From IMG/VR virus record IMGVR_UViG_3300040971_000377, positions 1-35,665 of that record: 35,665 nucleotides of DNA, one strand, 5' to 3'. The position numbers and the translations under genes were made by a program. How positions within the stretch are numbered: position 1 is the first letter of the stretch; each line of letters opens with the position of its first letter. Below are positions 5,390 through 34,895 of this stretch, piece after piece. This DNA is from a virus. Taxonomy: Duplodnaviria; Caudoviricetes. The notes under the pieces were generated by a model that was given only the letters and a program-made list of their open reading frames with translations, searched no databases and was not told the DNA's origin.

Positions 5390-5812
5390 CTATTCTTTCT
5401 TAATCTCCCAAAAACCATCAATCTCTTGGTATTTAGATGAAAAATTCGACAATATGCTATTGATTTTTTCTAAATCTTCGGGTGATGCATTTTCAGTTCC
5501 ATTATTCTCTTTGATGGATTTAATAGCGGATGACAATTCTTTCAAATCTCTAATCATCTCTTTCAAAGCCGTTGGCTCTGGGCTAGAAATACCCAAAACA
5601 TCATAGACTTCATTGCCATATTTTGCGATGAGTAAGTTGTATGTCCCTACATCAGGGGTTCTTTTAAGTTTTCCGTTATACCAGTTTGATAGAACTTGTT
5701 GGGAAATGCCAAGGTAGTCTGCAAAATCGGCTAAAGATTCCCTGCCAATACCTCTCCATTCGGCAAATTTAATCCTAATAAAATCTCTGAATGCAATTGG
5801 ATCGAATTCCAT
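5390..5812 (-). CDS. XRE-family HTH repressor (CI-like, no peptidase domain), probably leaderless
   Basis: SLADFADYLGISQQVLSNWYNG HTH. TG-T-TACAAT extended -10 lies 6 nt before the ATG at 5812. Confidence 0.85.
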   Translation of the reverse strand: MEFDPIAFRDFIRIKFAEWRGIGRESLADFADYLGISQQVLSNWYNGKLKRTPDVGTYNLLIAKYGNEVYDVLGISSPEPTALKEMIRDLKELSSAIKSIKENNGTENASPEDLEKINSILSNFSSKYQEIDGFWEIKKE

Positions 5813-5814
5813 AA

Positions 5815-5926
5815 TTGTATTGTAACAAATATGATTATTCATAAAAATACCTATTGACTTTCTCAAAATTAAGTTGTATTATTACAAATGTAATTGATAA
5901 ACAAACAAAGATTTGTAATAATGATC
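5815..5926. promoter_or_regulatory. Lysis/lysogeny switch: divergent promoters and operators
   Basis: Rightward TTGACT(5854)-N17-TATTAT(5877). Imperfect dyads TTGTATTGTAACAA (5815), TTGTATTATTACAA (5874) and partial TTGTAATAAT (5913). Confidence 0.7.
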
Positions 5927-6139: not shown

Positions 6140-6359
6140 TCACGGGTCTCTGATATGTAAGTGGTTTGTTTTCATAGCAAGAGAATAGCACCAATAATCT
6201 GGTAAATCACATCCGGACGAATTCGGGTGTATTTAGGCTGCAAATAGGTCGAAAAAAGATAAATCCGGGTCGGAACCGGACAAACTAGAGCCCTTGCTCA
6301 TTCGGCGACAATAACGCCGATTTCGCAGGGCGCCCATAAAACGGGCGGGAGGAAAAAAG

Positions 6360-6635
6360 ATGGCAACTGAGCAACGGCCTTGGCCAAACAACGCAAGCTA
6401 TGTTCGTGATGATGGCGCAATTTTAGTAAGGGAGGTGATCATCCGCCTTGAAAAGATCACCAAAAACAAGGTGAATACAGAAGAAGAAATGGAATCAATT
6501 GCTGCAGAGGCTGTGAGTGACCTGAACATTTTTTTGCGTGCTTTAGAACGTGAGGGTGCGAAAACTAGCCCTGAAAACGAGTTGAAAAGCAGGATTGACC
6601 AATTTGGGCCAGTAATGGTTCTGGTCAACGCCTGA
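6360..6635 (+). CDS. Hypothetical early protein
   Basis: RBS GGAGG; 91-aa helical ORF. Confidence 0.7.
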   Translation: MATEQRPWPNNASYVRDDGAILVREVIIRLEKITKNKVNTEEEMESIAAEAVSDLNIFLRALEREGAKTSPENELKSRIDQFGPVMVLVNA

Positions 6636-6672: not shown

Positions 6673-6735
6673 CCGGCTTCCCTAATGCCGGAGTAGCCCC
6701 CGGGTGGGAGGCAGTTCCTCCGCTAACCGCCCGGG
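6673..6735 (+). promoter_or_regulatory. Two-hairpin element, copy C (loop UUCCCUAAU)
   Basis: CCGGC-TTCCCTAAT-GCCGG followed by CCCGGGTGG..GAGG/CCTC..CCGCCCGGG. Confidence 0.5.
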
Positions 6736-6762
6736 TCCGAGGGAAGAAGAAAGGTGATAACG

Positions 6763-6867: not shown

Positions 6868-7079
6868 AAGTCTACCCGATCGCCCACAACGTGCGGAAAT
6901 GCAAGTGTGCAGACTGTAAGCATACCTTGTTGGCTGGCGAGGGCATTCAGCACCAATACCCGATGTTTCATGGCAATGGTCAATTCTTTTATGTATGCCC
7001 TCCTTGTGATGTGATCAGAGAGGCAACTGAAAAAAAGATCGTTGATGAATTTAAAGCGAGGTCAGATGGCAGCGAATAA
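6864..7079 (+). CDS. Small zinc-finger protein
   Basis: CADC and CPPC cysteine pairs. Confidence 0.7.
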   Translation: MKVYPIAHNVRKCKCADCKHTLLAGEGIQHQYPMFHGNGQFFYVCPPCDVIREATEKKIVDEFKARSDGSE

Positions 7080-7308
7080 TAACCTGATCCCCAAAAACAT
7101 TATGGATGAATTCAAGAGGCGGATGCAGGAAAGCCGCGGATATGACGCCAAACGGGCTGATGCAAGAAGGTTCGTTTACACCACCCTGACTGCCAGGTTT
7201 GGATCACCCTGGTGGGGCCTGAATAGAGAGAAATTATTAAGTGAGATGGAAATGGTTGAAGAGTCGTTTCGTAAGAATCCTGGAGATCAACCGGTCGTGA
7301 TGGGATAA
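7066..7308 (+). CDS. Hypothetical early protein
   Basis: RBS GAGG before MAANNN; overlaps the previous gene. Confidence 0.65.
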   Translation: MAANNNLIPKNIMDEFKRRMQESRGYDAKRADARRFVYTTLTARFGSPWWGLNREKLLSEMEMVEESFRKNPGDQPVVMG

Positions 7309-7316
7309 CCCATAAA

Positions 7317-7906
7317 CGGCTGCGCTGGTGGGGATGGTCTTTGATGCTCATATTCTCCTGCAGAGACCGAATAAATACCCTGGTAAGGCACCCAGGGTAC
7401 GCAACAAACGCTAACCCCAGCGCGGCCGAGCAGAAAGTCGGATGAGACCTACGTTTGACAGAACGTACCGACCTTTAACAATAGAGACCACAGTTTCAAA
7501 CCTGCAGTTGTGACAGCAGCTGCAGGTCCCCTGGACGGTGATTGACCGATTTTGCTGCACTCGGAGACCCCGACGAGCCCAGCACCTCGGCGGTGCAATC
7601 ATTCCCTTCGACACGGAACCGTCCACCTAATCTCTTTGCCACAGAATCATTAGGAGAGCCCGGCGCAAGTGTGGCACAAGTATGCCGGCGGGAGTGCTGA
7701 CCTGTTTACGCGACATGAGAATGCACTGTAGTCTGTAGAGCACAATAAATGCATGGCAGCCTGGAGAGACAGGCACACTAGGCCGGCCGATGGCTGAGAG
7801 GTTATATCCCTTCTGGAACAAGGCAAACCCTCAAGGCTGATCGTTCATCAAATGAAAGCCGGTCGCCTATCCCGGGGCAGGTTGCCCCCCTCAATCTGCC
7901 CCGGGA
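7317..7906 (+). ncRNA. Candidate large structured RNA (or cluster of RNAs), family unassigned
   Basis: About 600 nt with no credible ORF, tiled by nested stems (see findings). Strand inferred from the operon direction and G-U pairs. Confidence 0.6.
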
Positions 7907-7940
7907 GTTCTCTTACAAATAATTCCCACAGGAGACCCCT

Positions 7941-8363
7941 ATGTATCAAAAACACATCATGATTGGCAGACTTGGAAAAGACCCTGAAATGCGTTACACC
8001 CCTGCAGGGCAGCCGGTGGCATCCTTCCCTTTGGCTGCAGAACGTGTGTATTTGGATAAAGCCGGCAAGCAAGTTAAAGAGACGACCTGGTACTCGATCC
8101 GCGCATGGGGAAGTTTGGCAGAATCTTGCGACAAGCTGCTCACCAAAGGTCGGGCGGTGATGGTTGAAGGTCGGTTAAATATTGACCCTAAAACCGGAGG
8201 TCCTAAAATTTGGTTTGATGAAAGCCACAACCCACACGCCAATTTTGAGATCACTGCCAGTATAGTGAAGTTTCTTAACCCTACCACGACCCAAACAGGT
8301 GACCCGGTCTACATTTCTTTGGACGAACCAGAATCTGGAGATGGTTATGGAAATCCTGGCTAA
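7941..8363 (+). CDS. ssb: Single-stranded DNA-binding protein
   Basis: IGRLGKDPEMRYTPAG, ETTWY, KGRAVMVEGRL. Confidence 0.95.
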   Translation: MYQKHIMIGRLGKDPEMRYTPAGQPVASFPLAAERVYLDKAGKQVKETTWYSIRAWGSLAESCDKLLTKGRAVMVEGRLNIDPKTGGPKIWFDESHNPHANFEITASIVKFLNPTTTQTGDPVYISLDEPESGDGYGNPG

Positions 8364-8643
8364 ATCCTCCTCTGAAGAAAAATGGGCACTTGTAGAACTG
8401 GTGGGTTATCAACAATTCGCCGGTAATGTGTCAGATGAATCCATCAATGGAAAGCAATACATTCGCGTGGAGGTTCCAGAAACGAAAGTTCACAAAGCAT
8501 TTGATTGCAAGTTTGGTATTGAATCCGTCCACCACATCAGATACATCACTAAAGAACAGGCTGAAACCATCATCCGTCAAAGGGAGAGAGGGCGCTTTGC
8601 GCTCAATTTTTGCCAATTGGTGGCACTAGGTGCCAGATCATAA
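8341..8643 (+). CDS. Hypothetical phage protein (start approximate)
   Basis: WALVELVG..FAG.V....IRVEVP beta-rich ORF overlapping the ssb end. Confidence 0.7.
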   Translation: MVMEILAKSSSEEKWALVELVGYQQFAGNVSDESINGKQYIRVEVPETKVHKAFDCKFGIESVHHIRYITKEQAETIIRQRERGRFALNFCQLVALGARS

Positions 8644-8653
8644 ATGGCGTATC

Positions 8654-8678
8654 AACAGGCTCTTTAGCCTGTTTTTTT
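8654..8678 (+). terminator. Intrinsic terminator immediately upstream of parB
   Basis: AACAGGCT-CTTT-AGCCTGTT followed by a T run. Confidence 0.7.
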
Positions 8679-8693
8679 CAAAGGAGACCTCAA

Positions 8694-9890
8694 ATGAATG
8701 AAACACAATTAATAGGATTAGGACTTATCGATCCAAACCCATGGCAGACAAGACAAAATGAAGACCCTGCACATGTAGACGAGATTGCGCATTCAATCAA
8801 AGCCATGGGGATGATGCAAACCCCAACAGCAAGAAAAGTCGGAGATCGATTTCAACTTGTTTTTGGGCACACAAGACTAGCCGCTTATAAGCTGCTTGAA
8901 ACACTCGGGCAAGATGGGTATTCACACTTTCCATTAGTTATTCATGATCTCGATGATGAACAGATGGCCGTGGCTGCGTTTGAAGAAAATGAAAAACGCA
9001 GAGATTTGAACCCGGTCGACCGCGCGCGAGCTGTCAAGAAAATGCTTGAAGATTTCGAATGGACTCAGGAGATGGTCGCGGAGAAACTGCACATTGACCG
9101 CAGCGGCGTCTCCAACATGCTGCGAATGCTACGCCTTCCGCAGGATGTCTTAACAGCTGTAGCTGCCGGTGAATTGCCAGTACGGTCTGCCATGGCTTTG
9201 ATCCCTATTTTTGAGATCACCACCTCAGAGCAGGTGAAGCTTGAAGACCGTTTTGGAGAATCGCTCACAGACTTCATGAATGGCGCCAAGAAGGGCGAGG
9301 TCAACAGCGACGTGATCAGGGCTCGGGTTGATTTCTATATGAATTTCCTTCGACCGGAACCTGAGCAACTGCCATTCATAGATGGCTCTGAAACCGAAGC
9401 GCCAATGGTTGTCGAGAACGACATGATCACCGCCAATGATGAAGTATATGAACCTCCAGCGGCAGGTCAATTTGTTGAACCTCGGCCATCGATACCCACA
9501 GCAACACAAGTCCATATTGATGAATGGATGAATCATCCAAATGAAGAAGGTGAAGATGAACCTGAATCATCACTTCAACATGCAGCAGAATTTCCTGCTG
9601 CAGAAACTGACCCGGGATCTGACGAATCCTCTTTATTGAGTACTGAACAGGAAGTACAAGCGCCTCAACCTATGCCGGCTGCGAACCATCCAGTGGAAAA
9701 ACCGGCACTTGAGGAAATAAAAAAAGACCCCGAAGATCCGAATGCGATCTATTTGTCTGTTTCCTGGAAGACAAAAGGTGTGACTGTTTCTCTGCTTAAG
9801 CCTGGTTGGCCATCACCAAAGTTTCGATTTCTTAACATGTTGAAACTTGAATTGCTGCCAGGTGTCATCCGAGAAATGGAACAAGGCTGA
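8694..9890 (+). CDS. parB: ParB/Spo0J-family protein (PRTRC-associated) with acidic linker
   Basis: PNPWQTR, FGHTRLAA (GxxR box), ENEKRRDLNPVD, HTH TQEMVAEKLHIDRSGVSNMLRML; RBS AAGGAG. Confidence 0.92.
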   Translation: MNETQLIGLGLIDPNPWQTRQNEDPAHVDEIAHSIKAMGMMQTPTARKVGDRFQLVFGHTRLAAYKLLETLGQDGYSHFPLVIHDLDDEQMAVAAFEENEKRRDLNPVDRARAVKKMLEDFEWTQEMVAEKLHIDRSGVSNMLRMLRLPQDVLTAVAAGELPVRSAMALIPIFEITTSEQVKLEDRFGESLTDFMNGAKKGEVNSDVIRARVDFYMNFLRPEPEQLPFIDGSETEAPMVVENDMITANDEVYEPPAAGQFVEPRPSIPTATQVHIDEWMNHPNEEGEDEPESSLQHAAEFPAAETDPGSDESSLLSTEQEVQAPQPMPAANHPVEKPALEEIKKDPEDPNAIYLSVSWKTKGVTVSLLKPGWPSPKFRFLNMLKLELLPGVIREMEQG

Positions 9891-9891
9891 A

Positions 9892-10158
9892 ATGCAGGCT
9901 GCAAAAACAAACGAATCACTCCCGCTTTACCTCCTTTCTCTTGGAGAAAAGCGGGATGCACTCCAGGCTGCCATTGCCGAATTATCAGATAAAGACAAGG
10001 TACGAATAGAGACTATAGCAAGTGATCTGGTATCGGTTTTGAAAGCGAGACATCCGGGCGTGCAATTCACCAAAGAGAGCGCGTTTGAAGTGATTGCGAT
10101 GCTCGGCATATTTTTCAACAGGAGAATGAAAAATTATGAAATACAAAATCATGATTGA
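9892..10158 (+). CDS. Hypothetical protein within the PRTRC-type operon
   Basis: Starts 1 nt after the parB stop and overlaps the next gene. Confidence 0.65.
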   Translation: MQAAKTNESLPLYLLSLGEKRDALQAAIAELSDKDKVRIETIASDLVSVLKARHPGVQFTKESAFEVIAMLGIFFNRRMKNYEIQNHD

Positions 10159-10633
10159 AGGACAAGAGATAGAAATGCCGGAAGAAATTGCCGGCGACGA
10201 TGGAGCGTTGAAGAGCGCGCTATCACCTTACTTCCCGGGTGCTGCCAATGCCAAGTTCATCCGAACTGAGCCCAAAGATAACGTGATCACTGTGACGGTG
10301 GTCAAGCAGGCTGGTACGAAGGGATCTGGTGACGATGATGCTCTGCAGATTCTTGCTCACCTAGATGTTGCTCTTCCAGGTTCTTTGACGAGCCAGGTAC
10401 TAATCAAACTAATTGAAACTCCTGAAGGGATAAATCCGGTGGTTGCGCTCCATCGATCACTCGAAGGAAGAACGCTTAACCAGATGACGGTTGATCAGCT
10501 AATGGGACTGGATGATCAGATCGATGAAATCATTCAGTCTGGGTTGAAGGAAAAAATGGCTATCGATTCCAGTCTGGCATTGATCACCAAGATTGCCCCC
10601 ATCCCCTCAAAAGTAGTTGTAACAGGGTTCTAA
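10136..10633 (+). CDS. Ubiquitin-like protein (PRTRC protein C-like) with ~100-aa C-terminal extension
   Basis: LSPYFPGAANA and KQAGTKG (residues 57-63), matching the GTKG end typical of PRTRC C; operon context. Confidence 0.72.
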   Translation: MKYKIMIEGQEIEMPEEIAGDDGALKSALSPYFPGAANAKFIRTEPKDNVITVTVVKQAGTKGSGDDDALQILAHLDVALPGSLTSQVLIKLIETPEGINPVVALHRSLEGRTLNQMTVDQLMGLDDQIDEIIQSGLKEKMAIDSSLALITKIAPIPSKVVVTGF

Positions 10634-11490
10634 TGTCTGCAGTTTCTGAAAATCTTACTGCCTTTGAAGGTTTTGAGTTGGATTTCAGTTCAAGGGTACA
10701 GATATTAAAAAGTTTGAAATCTTTAGGATTTGAAGAAGTTTTGGGTCGTATCAATTCGATCCACAGCAGGATCAACGTCGTTATCACTGCAAAGCAAATG
10801 CACCTGAATAAAAACCCGGAATTGAAAACCCTGGCTTGTGCTTTTTCAGATGATGCATACTGTGAAAAAGTGGTTGAGATTCTTGCAGAAGAATTGCCAG
10901 TCATTGATCCACAGGAATATCTTGAGGATGGTAATTATTACCTTATGGCAGATATCGTTGGGATGAATGCCTGGCGCGAAGAAGAAGTTCAAGAATTAAT
11001 ATCTGATCCTGAAAACTATGGAAAAGATTTTAGCTTGACTGCCTTCCTTGAATTGATCAATTACGGAATCGACGATGACGAGCCTTGGAAAAATTGTATT
11101 GAGTATTTCAATTGGCCAATAGTTGCTCATTATGCAGTTAAATATGGTTTCGACCTTGACCACAACTACATCAAAAAGAGTTTACGCAAACACGGCGCAC
11201 CTGCTGAGGTTTATACGATGGTGATGTTGACCTTATTTCCTCCAGCCAACGATCTGCTTTGCATCACTGCAGACGATTGGGAGTGTGATCCAAGCTGCAT
11301 GGATGTGGAAATCACCACAGAAAACATCAGACTGCTGCGAAAACAATGGAAGCAAGCCCAGAAGCTCATTGAACAACTCGAGCCAGCCAGAGAATGGGTA
11401 GCAGAGAACCCCTGGTTTATTCCCATTTTGGGTGAGTGCCTGGAAAACAGCCAGAACAGAGAAAAGGAAAGGGTGAGGGTGCGAGTATGA
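10633..11490 (+). CDS. Acidic protein in the PRTRC protein F position
   Basis: Lies between the Ubl and E2 with coupled start/stop; assigned by synteny only. Confidence 0.55.
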   Translation: MSAVSENLTAFEGFELDFSSRVQILKSLKSLGFEEVLGRINSIHSRINVVITAKQMHLNKNPELKTLACAFSDDAYCEKVVEILAEELPVIDPQEYLEDGNYYLMADIVGMNAWREEEVQELISDPENYGKDFSLTAFLELINYGIDDDEPWKNCIEYFNWPIVAHYAVKYGFDLDHNYIKKSLRKHGAPAEVYTMVMLTLFPPANDLLCITADDWECDPSCMDVEITTENIRLLRKQWKQAQKLIEQLEPAREWVAENPWFIPILGECLENSQNREKERVRVRV

Positions 11491-12140
11491 ACGATCTGTT
11501 CTCTAATTCGCATGTCAGTGCAGCTGTTTACTTCACCGACCAGGGTCACTACATCTTTAAGTACAAAAGCCATGATCGGTTGATCACTAAGAACCTGAGA
11601 GCGCAGGAGGTATCTTCAGCTTTCACGCTTGAGACAATGGACAGCGGATGGATCACACCAGGAATTCAGCGGACAGGGTTCAATTCTCAGGGTGATTGGT
11701 TTGTTTATTATATGCCGGCGTGCAGGCTGAATCTGTACCTCGACGAATCCGGAACCAGATGGTGTGTTCCGATTCCACCCACTGTGTTGATCGGAGTTAA
11801 AAAAACCATTTATCTTTTCGCTATGGCCGGCACTTCCTTCGATCCAAAAGGGAAGGTTTACACGGCTCCATTCCCAAACATTCATTCAGATGGCAAGGTT
11901 TGCTGGGGGAAGAACCAGGCGCCGCAGGTTGACCCCAAAAAAGCAAAAGATGCATGGTTCCTTTTCTTCAACACTCCTTTCAACGGTGATCTTGCAGCCG
12001 ATAAATGTAAGAAGTTCCCAAAGGACGTGCGAGATTATCTGAAGTTTCTGGCCGGAAAGCAGACTTACCCCACCAATACCATGCGGGTTTGTTATGCCAG
12101 CTTGGACGGCCTGGTTGAACGATTGGTGGTGAAACAATGA
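11487..12140 (+). CDS. Prokaryotic E2 family D (PRTRC protein B-like)
   Basis: APFPNIHSDGKVCWG with catalytic Cys; FFNTPFN. Confidence 0.88.
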   Translation: MNDLFSNSHVSAAVYFTDQGHYIFKYKSHDRLITKNLRAQEVSSAFTLETMDSGWITPGIQRTGFNSQGDWFVYYMPACRLNLYLDESGTRWCVPIPPTVLIGVKKTIYLFAMAGTSFDPKGKVYTAPFPNIHSDGKVCWGKNQAPQVDPKKAKDAWFLFFNTPFNGDLAADKCKKFPKDVRDYLKFLAGKQTYPTNTMRVCYASLDGLVERLVVKQ

Positions 12141-12727
12141 TGAATAGTTTGGTCGACTATCGGGTTGCTGAACTCAATTTCAGACCTAGAGCTGGTTTTC
12201 TATATGATTATATTTTTGCAAGCAACGGAACCTTTGTCCACGCAAAAAACGATATTTTTGATGTAATCATGCCATTATCGATTATTCGCGAACAAGAGAA
12301 GATGGTCCGCGGACTAATGACGATTCATCCCTCGATCAAGCTTCCAAAGCTGGTGCCGGCAGAGGTTCTACGTTATTTAGTTCACATCAGCCGGCGAAAG
12401 ATTCCTAACGAAATTCTTTTCTACATCCGGTGGGTCAATGGGGAGTGGGAGATGGATATTCCACCCCAAAAGACAGGGCACGCCATAGTTCAGCCTCTTG
12501 AAGATGGTGAGTATGTGCCGATTGAGGTTCATTCCCACAACACCATGCCTGCGTTCTTTTCGAAAACTGATAATCGGGATGAGAACGGTCTGCGGATTTA
12601 CGGCGTACTGGGTAGGATGGACCGGGATGTTGTTGATTTCAAGTTGCGTATATCCATTTATGGTCATTATTCCGTTCTTCCATATCAATTAGTCTTTGAA
12701 TCGTTGCCAGAGGTCAAAAATGGATGA
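12137..12727 (+). CDS. JAB/JAMM metallo-isopeptidase (PRTRC protein A-like)
   Basis: PNE upstream Glu and EVHSHNTMPAFFSKTDNRDE (HxH-x7-S-xx-D). Confidence 0.92.
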   Translation: MMNSLVDYRVAELNFRPRAGFLYDYIFASNGTFVHAKNDIFDVIMPLSIIREQEKMVRGLMTIHPSIKLPKLVPAEVLRYLVHISRRKIPNEILFYIRWVNGEWEMDIPPQKTGHAIVQPLEDGEYVPIEVHSHNTMPAFFSKTDNRDENGLRIYGVLGRMDRDVVDFKLRISIYGHYSVLPYQLVFESLPEVKNG

Positions 12728-13526
12728 TTTCAACCTTGATTATATGAATGCACTGACTCTGCTGTTGCCGGCTGAGAATAGTGTCAAATTGTTCCTGGTT
12801 GGATGCGGAGGAACGGGGAGCTGGCTGGCTCCTGCGGTGGCCAGGGTCGGGAAGTTGCTAATTGAGAAGTTCAACAAAGAGGTCGAGATCACCTTTTTTG
12901 ATCCGGATTATGTGGAAGAGAAAAACATTTACCGCCAGAATTTCTGTGCTGCTGAGGTCGGTACGAATAAAGCTGAGGCGTTAGCCGATCGGTATGGTCA
13001 GGCTTGGGGAATAGAAATTGGTGCGATGGGTAAGAAGTTCGATAGAGGTTATGGTTTCGCTTCTGGTTCATCGGTCATTATTGGATGCGTCGATAATACG
13101 GATGCTAGAAAAAACATCAGTGATTATGTAAATGGGTGCTGCTGGTTGGATTGCGGAAACACCAAGAACTTTGGCCAAATATTGCTAGGTACAGGCAAGG
13201 GGCTTGAGAAAGCATTTGCCATCCCTGGTTATTGTGGAACCCTACCTTATCCACATGTGCAGCATCCTGAGCTCATTCAAAAAACACAATTCAACGAAAA
13301 ACCAAAAGCCAAGGGTGAAGAGCTCTCTTGCGCAGACATGGCTTTACAAGACAGCCAGGGGTTGGCGATCAACCAGCGCATGGCTGCTGAAGCGGCGGAC
13401 TACCTGGTGCGGATGTTGATCACGCGGGATCTGAAGAAATTCGCTACTTACATCGACCTGGAGAGCGGCACGACCAGGTCAAAATACATCACGGAGAAGG
13501 CGGTCAAGGGTTATGGAAAAGGTTAA
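12720..13526 (+). CDS. ThiF/E1-like activating enzyme (PRTRC ThiF)
   Basis: LVGCGGTGS, DPDYVEEKNIYRQNF, GCVDN..AR, WLDCGN, LSCAD, QGLAINQ. Confidence 0.93.
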   Translation: MDDFNLDYMNALTLLLPAENSVKLFLVGCGGTGSWLAPAVARVGKLLIEKFNKEVEITFFDPDYVEEKNIYRQNFCAAEVGTNKAEALADRYGQAWGIEIGAMGKKFDRGYGFASGSSVIIGCVDNTDARKNISDYVNGCCWLDCGNTKNFGQILLGTGKGLEKAFAIPGYCGTLPYPHVQHPELIQKTQFNEKPKAKGEELSCADMALQDSQGLAINQRMAAEAADYLVRMLITRDLKKFATYIDLESGTTRSKYITEKAVKGYGKG

Positions 13527-34373: not shown

Positions 34374-34895
34374 CTATTCACATGATCGATTATATTCAAA
34401 GTGGGCTCGAGGGTTCTTAATATATCTAGCTCTTGTAGTTCTTGCATTAAAAGCATCCTCAATCCATTTTTCTAATTCAGCTGCATCACTAGGGTAATTT
34501 ATTACTCTTGCATAACACTCAACATCATCCTTACCTTTAAGATTGTTATTTAATCTTTCGGGATAATACTGATCAAAACTTTTTAGCTTTATACCTAGTA
34601 AACCGTTAGGTGTTACTGTTTCCCCATTTCTTAGTGAGGCTTGAATTTCCCAATCAATATATCTTCTTGCCCATGTGCATTTACCCATCAATACAATGGT
34701 TACTGTAGAATCTTCAAGATATAACTGACGGATACGTCTCATTATGTAGTCTGAATCTGTGCTGTTTATGATGTCATCAGCCATACCAAGTGCTCTTGAA
34801 ATTAATATATTTTTGTCGTCATCGAATTTTGAAATAAAATCGTCGACTTCTTTTTGATCTGCATGGTGGTAAGAAATAAATACTTTATGGGTCAT
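34374..34895 (-). CDS. TIR-domain protein, ThsB/DUF1863-like
   Basis: HKVFISYHHAD, DSTVTIVLMG, RRYIDWEI (catalytic Glu), NGLLGI, WIEDAF. Confidence 0.92.
   Translation of the reverse strand: MTHKVFISYHHADQKEVDDFISKFDDDKNILISRALGMADDIINSTDSDYIMRRIRQLYLEDSTVTIVLMGKCTWARRYIDWEIQASLRNGETVTPNGLLGIKLKSFDQYYPERLNNNLKGKDDVECYARVINYPSDAAELEKWIEDAFNARTTRARYIKNPRAHFEYNRSCE

Follow-up and report, generated by a model that had tools for sequence, protein, structure and literature searches.

Does the widest gap between the genes of this provirus hold one large noncoding RNA, or does it hold something else? The window analysed here (the whole stretch of 35,665 nt) is the whole provirus record, 94% complete, and its genes run from an integrase through a repressor-like HTH gene (5390-5866, - strand) and a rightward early operon to an HK97-type head and a siphovirus tail. 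We found that 7309-7940 (632 nt) is the widest gap among the 47 ORFs taken as genes. It is flanked by the following genes:

7066..7308, + strand: ORF of 80 aa, function unassigned, 12 homologues, no Pfam match
7941..8363, + strand: ssb (Pfam SSB), the first gene 3' of the array

Genes for ParB and the PRTRC proteins E2, JAB and ThiF (Pfam ParB, Prok-E2_D, Prok-JAB, ThiF) are located 3' of ssb. The closest provirus relatives, L030 and L031, belong to genomes whose titles read Anaerolineaceae and Chloroflexi bacterium, and from these relatives we infer that the host of the window is an Anaerolineaceae-type sludge bacterium.

The first-pass annotation had proposed that 7317-7906 is an ORF-free region of ~600 nt, tiled with nested helices, and a candidate large phage ncRNA. 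All the stem halves that it named were found where it had placed them. On the + strand the 590 nt fold at -233.8 kcal/mol (z -5.32, 0/100 shuffled sequences as good), whereas the - strand gives z -1.46, with 9/100 shuffles as good. This difference agrees with the earlier remark that the mismatches are mostly G-U compatible on the + strand. Fixed 100-nt tiles did not single out the region: its own tiles gave z -2.0, +1.6 and -2.8, and 16/174 tiles elsewhere in the window reach -2. The region is indeed the largest intergenic gap, but it is not literally ORF-free, as four ORFs of 52-71 aa overlap it. In homologues, stops or frame changes interrupt these four, and no conserved protein is encoded. 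An antisense ORF at 7112-7351 was considered as a gene and rejected, being broken in L003 and L030.

As in the first pass, the region could be assigned to no Rfam family, with 0 matches at the gathering threshold in the window. An E-value scan of 7000-8100 against Rfam gave Chlorobi-1 as its best match (20.7 bits, - strand), and such scans of the window, L030, L031 and five further loci gave sub-threshold or tRNA matches only. ARAGORN found 0 tRNA/tmRNA genes in the window, a BLAST search of phages and plasmids with the region returned chance matches only, and no self-cleaving ribozyme core was found in the region. No description of these motifs was found in the mostly open-access literature covered.

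To understand the architecture, we compared the region with arrays in related prophages, and found that it is a row of small units, about nine in all, that fold independently and can be swapped, not one large RNA. The units of the window are:

7317..7428, + strand: M1, a long stem with a 15-17-nt loop and compensatory pairs
7376..7411, + strand: F, a mobile hairpin cassette in the M1 junction
7437..7472, + strand: M2, a bulged hairpin with a GAGACC bulge and the loop UUGACAG (7455-7461)
7484..7527, + strand: M3, a second GAGACC and the hairpin 7500-7527 with the loop GUGACAG; z -6.07
7532..7628, + strand: B1, an acceptor-like stem, long arm, T-loop hairpin and ACC end
7634..7742, + strand: C, a covarying 5-7-bp helix (7636-7642/7671-7677) crossing hairpin C2, then C3
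7753..7774, + strand: D, a leader UGGCAG (a UGACAG variant), 5-bp stem and GAGAGA loop
7780..7869, + strand: B2, a second tRNA-like unit, long-arm tip with a CAU/UAU-UCCC loop, T-loop somewhat decayed
7870..7906, + strand: E, a promoterless copy of a ~45-nt Anaerolineaceae chromosomal hairpin gene, loop CCCCCCU

Related arrays are present in L003, L004 (=L033), L030, L031, L037, L041, L044, L066 and L087, with a partial array in L009 and a C-D unit in L180. Each of the 11 arrays listed has its own order and number of units, for example:

Window (+ strand): M1(F)-M2-M3-B-C-D-B-E
L003: M1-M2-M3-B-B-C-D-B-E-D-D
L004: M1-M2-M3-F-B-E
L031: M1-M2-M3-B-E-other-B-other-D
L041: M1-M2-M3-E-B
L037: tRNA-D-B-C-D-B-tRNA-like-E-F
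L044: tRNA-E-tRNA-C-D
L066: tRNA-B-D-tRNA-like-E
L087: E-M2-M3-B, two ORFs, then M1

Alignments end at unit borders (7317, 7366-7420, 7526-7538, 7623-7629, 7743-7751, 7775-7781, 7862-7867, 7905-7907), with few ends at variable tips (7604, 7660, 7712, 7768, 7802, 7836). Public contigs from 3/8 runs (X1, X6, X9) omit exactly F (7376-7411), and the contig of one run of the eight (X19) omits B1-C-D, 7531-7780, with 45 nt on its short side; runs X1 and X19 are labelled RNA-Seq, and their contigs are probably DNA. The true loci among matches of the IMG/VR pattern scans were 2/5 for M2, 2/3 for B2, 1/2 for B1 and 3/28 for the B pattern, model R2 found only G001 among 151 genomes of the order, and class-wide BLAST with the L037 array gave tRNA-Met matches and no new array.

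The nested helices proposed at first are therefore present within units of 22-110 nt, but none joins units. No conserved helix between units was seen among the related arrays, and M1 pairs with M2/M3 in 0/46 consensus pairs. The proposed stem CCTAAT/ATTAGG is poorly kept in relatives, and the conserved helix at that place is TGCCAC(7637)/GTGGCA(7671). Folding z is uneven among units (M1+F -4.6, M3 -6.07, E -5.4, B1 -3.9, B2 -1.1, C1-C2 +0.9, C3 +1.6), and C1-C2, C3 and B2 alone fold no better than shuffles, which counts against reading the region as an array. Covariation among homologues is seen unit by unit, in M1-M3, B, C-D and E. For M, B and C it comes from 5-11 related sequences with hand-set structures, and in such small sets it supports each helix without proving it.

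True tRNAs occur in the arrays of L037, L044 and L066, on the same strand as the units; the window has none. We read the region as structured, non-coding + strand RNA because of the covariation, the T-loop motifs and these same-strand tRNAs, so that part of the first proposal stands, whereas the single large RNA does not: gains, losses and changes of order affect the units independently, and in L087 two ORFs separate M1 from M2/M3. In its place are at least six uncatalogued small RNA motifs. The position before ssb and the PRTRC genes holds for the window but is not obligatory, since in L037, L066 and L087 the units directly follow the homologue of the 6360-6635 ORF. A conserved hairpin pair was also observed 5' of that gene (window 6195-6300; L037:628-716; L066:1159-1237; L087:856-917), and is possibly an early-operon leader element. 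A further conserved structured unit, G, and elements bounded by GUGACA-GGAGAGAC are found in L030:6540-6730, L031:6780-6990 and L009:1-130, not in the window.

M1 lies directly 3' of the homologue of the 80-aa ORF in 7/7 M1-bearing loci (window, L003, L004, L030, L031, L041, L087). Across the block M1-M3, 12/46 predicted pairs are changed on both sides in 6 sequences. The M1 loop ends in an invariant UUCUCCU, the reverse complement of an AGGAGAA ribosome-binding site, and it starts with CUCAU in 4/7 loci, which together with UUCUCCU forms the complement of a Shine-Dalgarno (SD) sequence plus AUG. The search for host targets of this loop gave 7 non-self matches, 5 of them at long ORF starts, which is indistinguishable from SD enrichment. 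No convincing target of the unit loops was found in the phage genome by a scan that had no control, and this also counts against the array reading. A pseudoknot between the M1 loop and the M2 bulge (CUCAU/AUGAG, covarying in L041) was dropped as unproven, since in L087 M1 and M2 are apart.

F is cleanly absent from the contigs X1, X6 and X9 and from L003, L031 and L041, and occupies another position in L004 and L037. The 3' half of F was also observed in another prophage, L045 (G261:C58:4854-4885), where it lies, apparently in frame, within a JAB-like PRTRC gene. Loops of the C-rich type recur upstream of the array:

6697..6738, + strand: E2, an upstream hairpin with a C-rich anti-SD-like loop; z -3.07 (+), -1.26 (-)

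E2 has counterparts in L037, L066 and L087; loops of this type read CCUCC, and that of L037 is CACCUCCUUA.

In M2 and M3, 7/21 pairs are changed on both sides in 7 sequences, and 95.1% are paired vs 88.9% in shuffles. In M3 alone, 5/10 pairs are changed on both sides, and in run X6 M2 carries the compensatory change A7451G together with T7466C. We compared the loops with host tRNAs, and found that the tRNA-Asp loop CUGUCAA of the host-family genome G196 is the exact complement of 7455-7461; the CUGUCAA stretch occurs in 3/5 genomes. Both M loops of L003 have switched together to UUACAG, which is the complement of a tRNA-Tyr loop. M2 of L041 and L087 has AGACA, which suits neither tRNA-Asp nor the P1 a1 site, and this argues against docking. 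The match of 6-7 nt between UGACAG and tRNA-Asp may be that of a generic kissing loop, because P1 c4 RNA has this word as its a1 target.

The D unit is widespread in phages. Its fixed 22-nt pattern was found at at least 120 IMG/VR loci (L098-L217), and ~510 stored stretches are estimated to carry it. Unannotated copies lie in phages of Ralstonia, cyanobacteria, Pasteurellaceae, Gordonia, Erwinia and Bacteroides; the arrays of L004 and L041 lack D. The free stem pair is kept in 105/108 copies, and among 18 unselected copies the variation is mostly A-to-G, with pairing kept by wobble. tRNAs lie nearby in 25/108 loci, and all of them (47/47) are on the D strand; none of the 47 is a tRNA-Asp. A tRNA follows D within 20 nt in 9/108 loci, often at 2-11 nt, and D often stands before a start. 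The search for cis complements of the D leader gave 0/102 upstream and 2/108 downstream, no enrichment, and Rfam on 20 D loci gave only tRNAs and one c4 RNA 570 nt away.

The B units have a tRNA-like scaffold. Their common anatomy (17 units) is a 5-7-bp closing stem, a long arm of 30-60 nt, a UUCRA-loop hairpin and an RCC(A/U) end. The UUCRA loop is present in 16/17 units, and the spacer between T-loop and RCC is 11 nt in 16/17, despite three T-stem subtypes. In tRNAs the spacer from the T-loop to the acceptor end is 12 nt, so that the B spacer is one base shorter; this and the decayed T-loop of B2 also count against the array reading. By script, RCC(A/U) follows 9-13 nt after the T-loop in 17/17 units, and a U precedes the G of the 5' end in 14/17. 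A U before a starting G and RCCA-like ends are determinants of RNase P. No cloverleaf with D and anticodon arms was detected by ARAGORN (0 genes in the window), and the B units have no Rfam tRNA match.

In B, 12/22 pairs covary in 11 sequences, with 87.7% of cells paired vs 78.0% in shuffles. Model R1 recovered B1 although it lay outside the training set (22 bits, E 0.011), and found unseen B members in L009 (50.8 bits) and G124 (43.4 bits); it had 0 matches in 100 of the 120 D loci and matched 2/151 family genomes. The long-arm tip GCCCCCCUC, with a C6 loop, is carried by 8/17 B units (L003, L004, L009, L030, L037 twice, L066, L087), which makes B a ready-made set of exchanged loops on a common scaffold. 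B1 and B2 of the window have other tips, without the C6 loop, which is a further count against the array reading.

In C-D, 5/21 pairs covary in 5 sequences, including the helix that crosses C2. As judged by eye, the C2-crossing helix is UUGCCAC/GUGGCA in the window; L180 has UCGCCAC/GUGGCGA, L044 has UGUCAC/GUGACA, and L169 possibly has UUGACAC/GUGUCA.

The C6 loop links the B tips to unit E. With a search pattern that fixed the loop, the E core was found in 59/151 host-family genomes, up to 3 per genome, against 2 control matches. The host loci are L276-L305, L042:1457-1568 and L306-L329 (e.g. G001:C27:301104-301119). The 31 host loci analysed each have one hairpin with a free stem. A sigma-70-like promoter lies directly 5' in 27/31 vs 0/31 on the other strand, and a U-tract 3' in 27/31 vs 10/31; 0/5 phage copies have a promoter. 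Among 27 sequences, 96 cells are changed on both sides vs 25.7 in shuffles, and 96.5 vs 71.6% are paired; the number of pairs with a double change is not above shuffles (107/500). The reading of E as a terminator was rejected, as the U-tract is weak or absent in the phage copies.

On these sequence features, the host E-type hairpin is a stand-alone RNA gene of ~45 nt, previously uncatalogued: a new conserved Anaerolineaceae chromosomal RNA gene that phages have copied. A 10-mer search gave further hairpin paralogues in all five genomes searched (12/24 loci read). Of these 24 loci, examined for a sense-strand complement of the C6 loop, 12 were the host hairpin genes, 5 were reversed prophage units and 7 were unrelated sites. 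The partner of the hairpin is probably a protein, because several paralogues share the loop and no conserved sense-strand complement was found. A C-run loop on a stable hairpin is known from 6C RNA, C-rich-loop sRNAs and sponges of the CsrB/RsmZ type. The E family shares the C-run loop with them and has several one-loop paralogues per genome, but E is a single 45-nt hairpin instead of two C-run hairpins, the family belongs to Chloroflexota, and Rfam gave 0 matches in 18 host loci.

Phage tRNAs add altered loops to these arrays. The initiator-type tRNA-Met of L037:1304-1377, L044:1428-1501 and L066:1780-1852 has the loop CCCAUAA (C33) in 3/3, and the host tRNA-Met loop is CUCAUAA in all 33 matches in 33 host loci; the phage loop is possibly a nuclease-evading or decoy variant. 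A tRNA-like gene in which a loop of at least 12 nt replaces the anticodon loop was observed at L037:1872-1953 and L066:2124-2204 (Rfam tRNA, 38.8 and 46.1 bits).

What would such a row do? Our preferred reading, with a probability of about one half, is that the promoterless array consists of RNA mimics: host tRNA-processing enzymes would cut them from the early transcript, and they would then sequester RNA-binding factors or RNAs of the host. Because one unit copies a host-family hairpin gene and two are tRNA-shaped, the row is likely a source of decoy RNAs. An early rightward promoter near 5854-5922 would transcribe the array, RNase P would cleave on the 5' side of every B unit, and trimming would follow at the RCC ends. 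The B units would serve as punctuation in the array and, like c4/CI RNAs, as stable scaffolds for an exchangeable loop. The C6 loop and the host hairpin RNA would compete for one partner, which is probably a protein. The UGACAG loops of M2, M3 and D would kiss the tRNA-Asp anticodon loop, and the UCUCCU/CCUCC loops would pair with ribosome-binding sites. Units may be swapped by recombination at short shared words, such as CCCUGG at unit starts and the D hairpins.

Phage RNA mimics have precedents in the Racr anti-CRISPR repeats and the pseudo-ToxI repeats. Like them, E is a host RNA element copied by a phage and removed from its native surroundings, but its source is an uncatalogued C6-loop hairpin instead of a CRISPR repeat or type III antitoxin, and here several mimics are stacked and shuffled. 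T4 species I RNA is a tRNA-like stable RNA in a phage tRNA cluster. In such clusters, too, one transcript mixes true tRNAs with units that have a tRNA-like acceptor and T-arm, as in L037, L044 and L066; most units here are not tRNAs, the window has none, and B has display loops. The phi80 M3 RNA is a further tRNA-like stable RNA of phage tRNA clusters, and plant t-elements are tRNA-like too, according to the part of PMC5499578 that treats them.

If the mimic reading is true, phages would carry arrays of RNA cargo in their early regions, much as they carry arrays of anti-defence proteins, and E would be direct bait for a host factor. More tentatively, and as a possibility that extends further, Anaerolineae prophages may keep an evolvable library of RNA decoys, in which an RNase P-matured tRNA-like scaffold with interchangeable loops, including the host hairpin loop, stands beside tRNA-Asp-docking hairpins and altered-loop initiator tRNAs. 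One early transcript would then neutralise several host RNA-based controls or tRNA-targeting defences.

The main rival of the decoy reading, which we consider somewhat unlikely, is that the units act only in cis and punctuate, protect or tune the early mRNA as RNase P/Z cut sites like t-elements, as 5' stabilisers or by folding back on ribosome-binding sites. The closeness of D to tRNAs and starts agrees with this, and the UCUCCU of M1 fits the ssb SD sequence AGGAGA in the window, L003, L004, L030, L031 and L041; t-elements provide a precedent in the relevant part of PMC5499578. However, cis action leaves unexplained the copy of a free-standing host hairpin gene with its loop on 8/17 B tips, and the gene-free stacking of so many units.

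The c4/CI RNAs (RF01695) are likewise small prophage RNAs of early operons with UGG...RCC ends and a G at +1. B or M1 could be processed antisense RNAs of this type, with the GAGACC-UGACAG hairpins as cis targets gating read-through into ssb and the PRTRC genes, but we regard this as unlikely. The UGG...RCC termini are common to B, P1 c4 and P4 CI, and M2/M3 share UGACAG with the P1 a1 site (PMC2864571). The sequence CUGUAAC between two B units in L003 complements the switched loops of the same array, an 8-nt match. Nevertheless, RF01695 had no match in G000 and none over the cut-off in five records, and it gives B no score; no sense-strand CTGTCA lies within 1.5 kb of M2 in the window, L004 or L030, and L041 has none. 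No cis target was found for B, a unit with a T-loop hairpin and an exchangeable long-arm tip that occurs in 1-3 copies per array. The c4/CI RNAs, named as RNase P substrates, have no T-loop as described in PMC5499578.

It is very unlikely that the features act at the DNA level, as single-stranded hairpins (STAXI/Frpo/ssi-like) or as recombination joints of the PeSL kind, and play no part as RNA. ssb and ParB do lie 3' of the array, and a promoter-like TTGACA-16-AACAAT is present at 7455-7482, but X1, X6, L003, L030 and L031 have C instead of the -10 T at 7482, and the G-U-compatible strand bias, the T-loops, the same-strand tRNAs and the arrays that lack a neighbouring ssb all speak against it. 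STAXI, which PMC2864571 in its relevant part describes as tandem pseudoknot repeats near ssb, has no Rfam match here. Shuffling of repeated early-region cassettes is known from the PeSLs of T4-type phages (PMC2839356, in the part on these cassettes), and breakpoints at cassettes are found here too; a PeSL is a promoter and terminator hairpin around genes, whereas the units here are promoterless and themselves the cargo.

Harder still to credit is that D and M2/M3 are nut/put-like antitermination signals of the early operon with the other units as passengers: the 5-bp stem and purine loop of D resemble boxB, and D occurs in phages of many hosts, but no N-like gene was identified, D is missing from the arrays of L004 and L041, and the features compared show no likeness to HK022 put as far as PMC9378689 describes it.

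GOLLD and ROOL are both in Rfam 15. One large folded RNA of their kind is the least credible alternative: the ~590 nt, prophage or tRNA context and z of -5.3 resemble ROOL (581 nt on average, in the relevant part of PMC5737381), but there is neither an Rfam match nor an inter-unit helix or multistem scaffold joining domains, up to 250 nt can be lost, and the separable units are reordered or split by ORFs, so that the reshuffling largely refutes it. In its working the row would partly resemble c4/CI (scaffold plus seed), phage RNA decoys and PeSL shuffling, but the units fail membership of c4, GOLLD/ROOL, tRNA, 6C, STAXI and PeSL.

Other genes of the provirus were also observed. The PRTRC-like set (ParB, E2_D, JAB, ThiF) is complete at 8610-13526 of the window, in a siphovirus early operon, and L002, L003 and L030 have a second ParB-like gene upstream. 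Two genes of the ThsB type with a TIR domain lie one at each end of the provirus (1783-2190 and 34374-34895, the latter on the - strand), and KTSC and SNase genes are also present.
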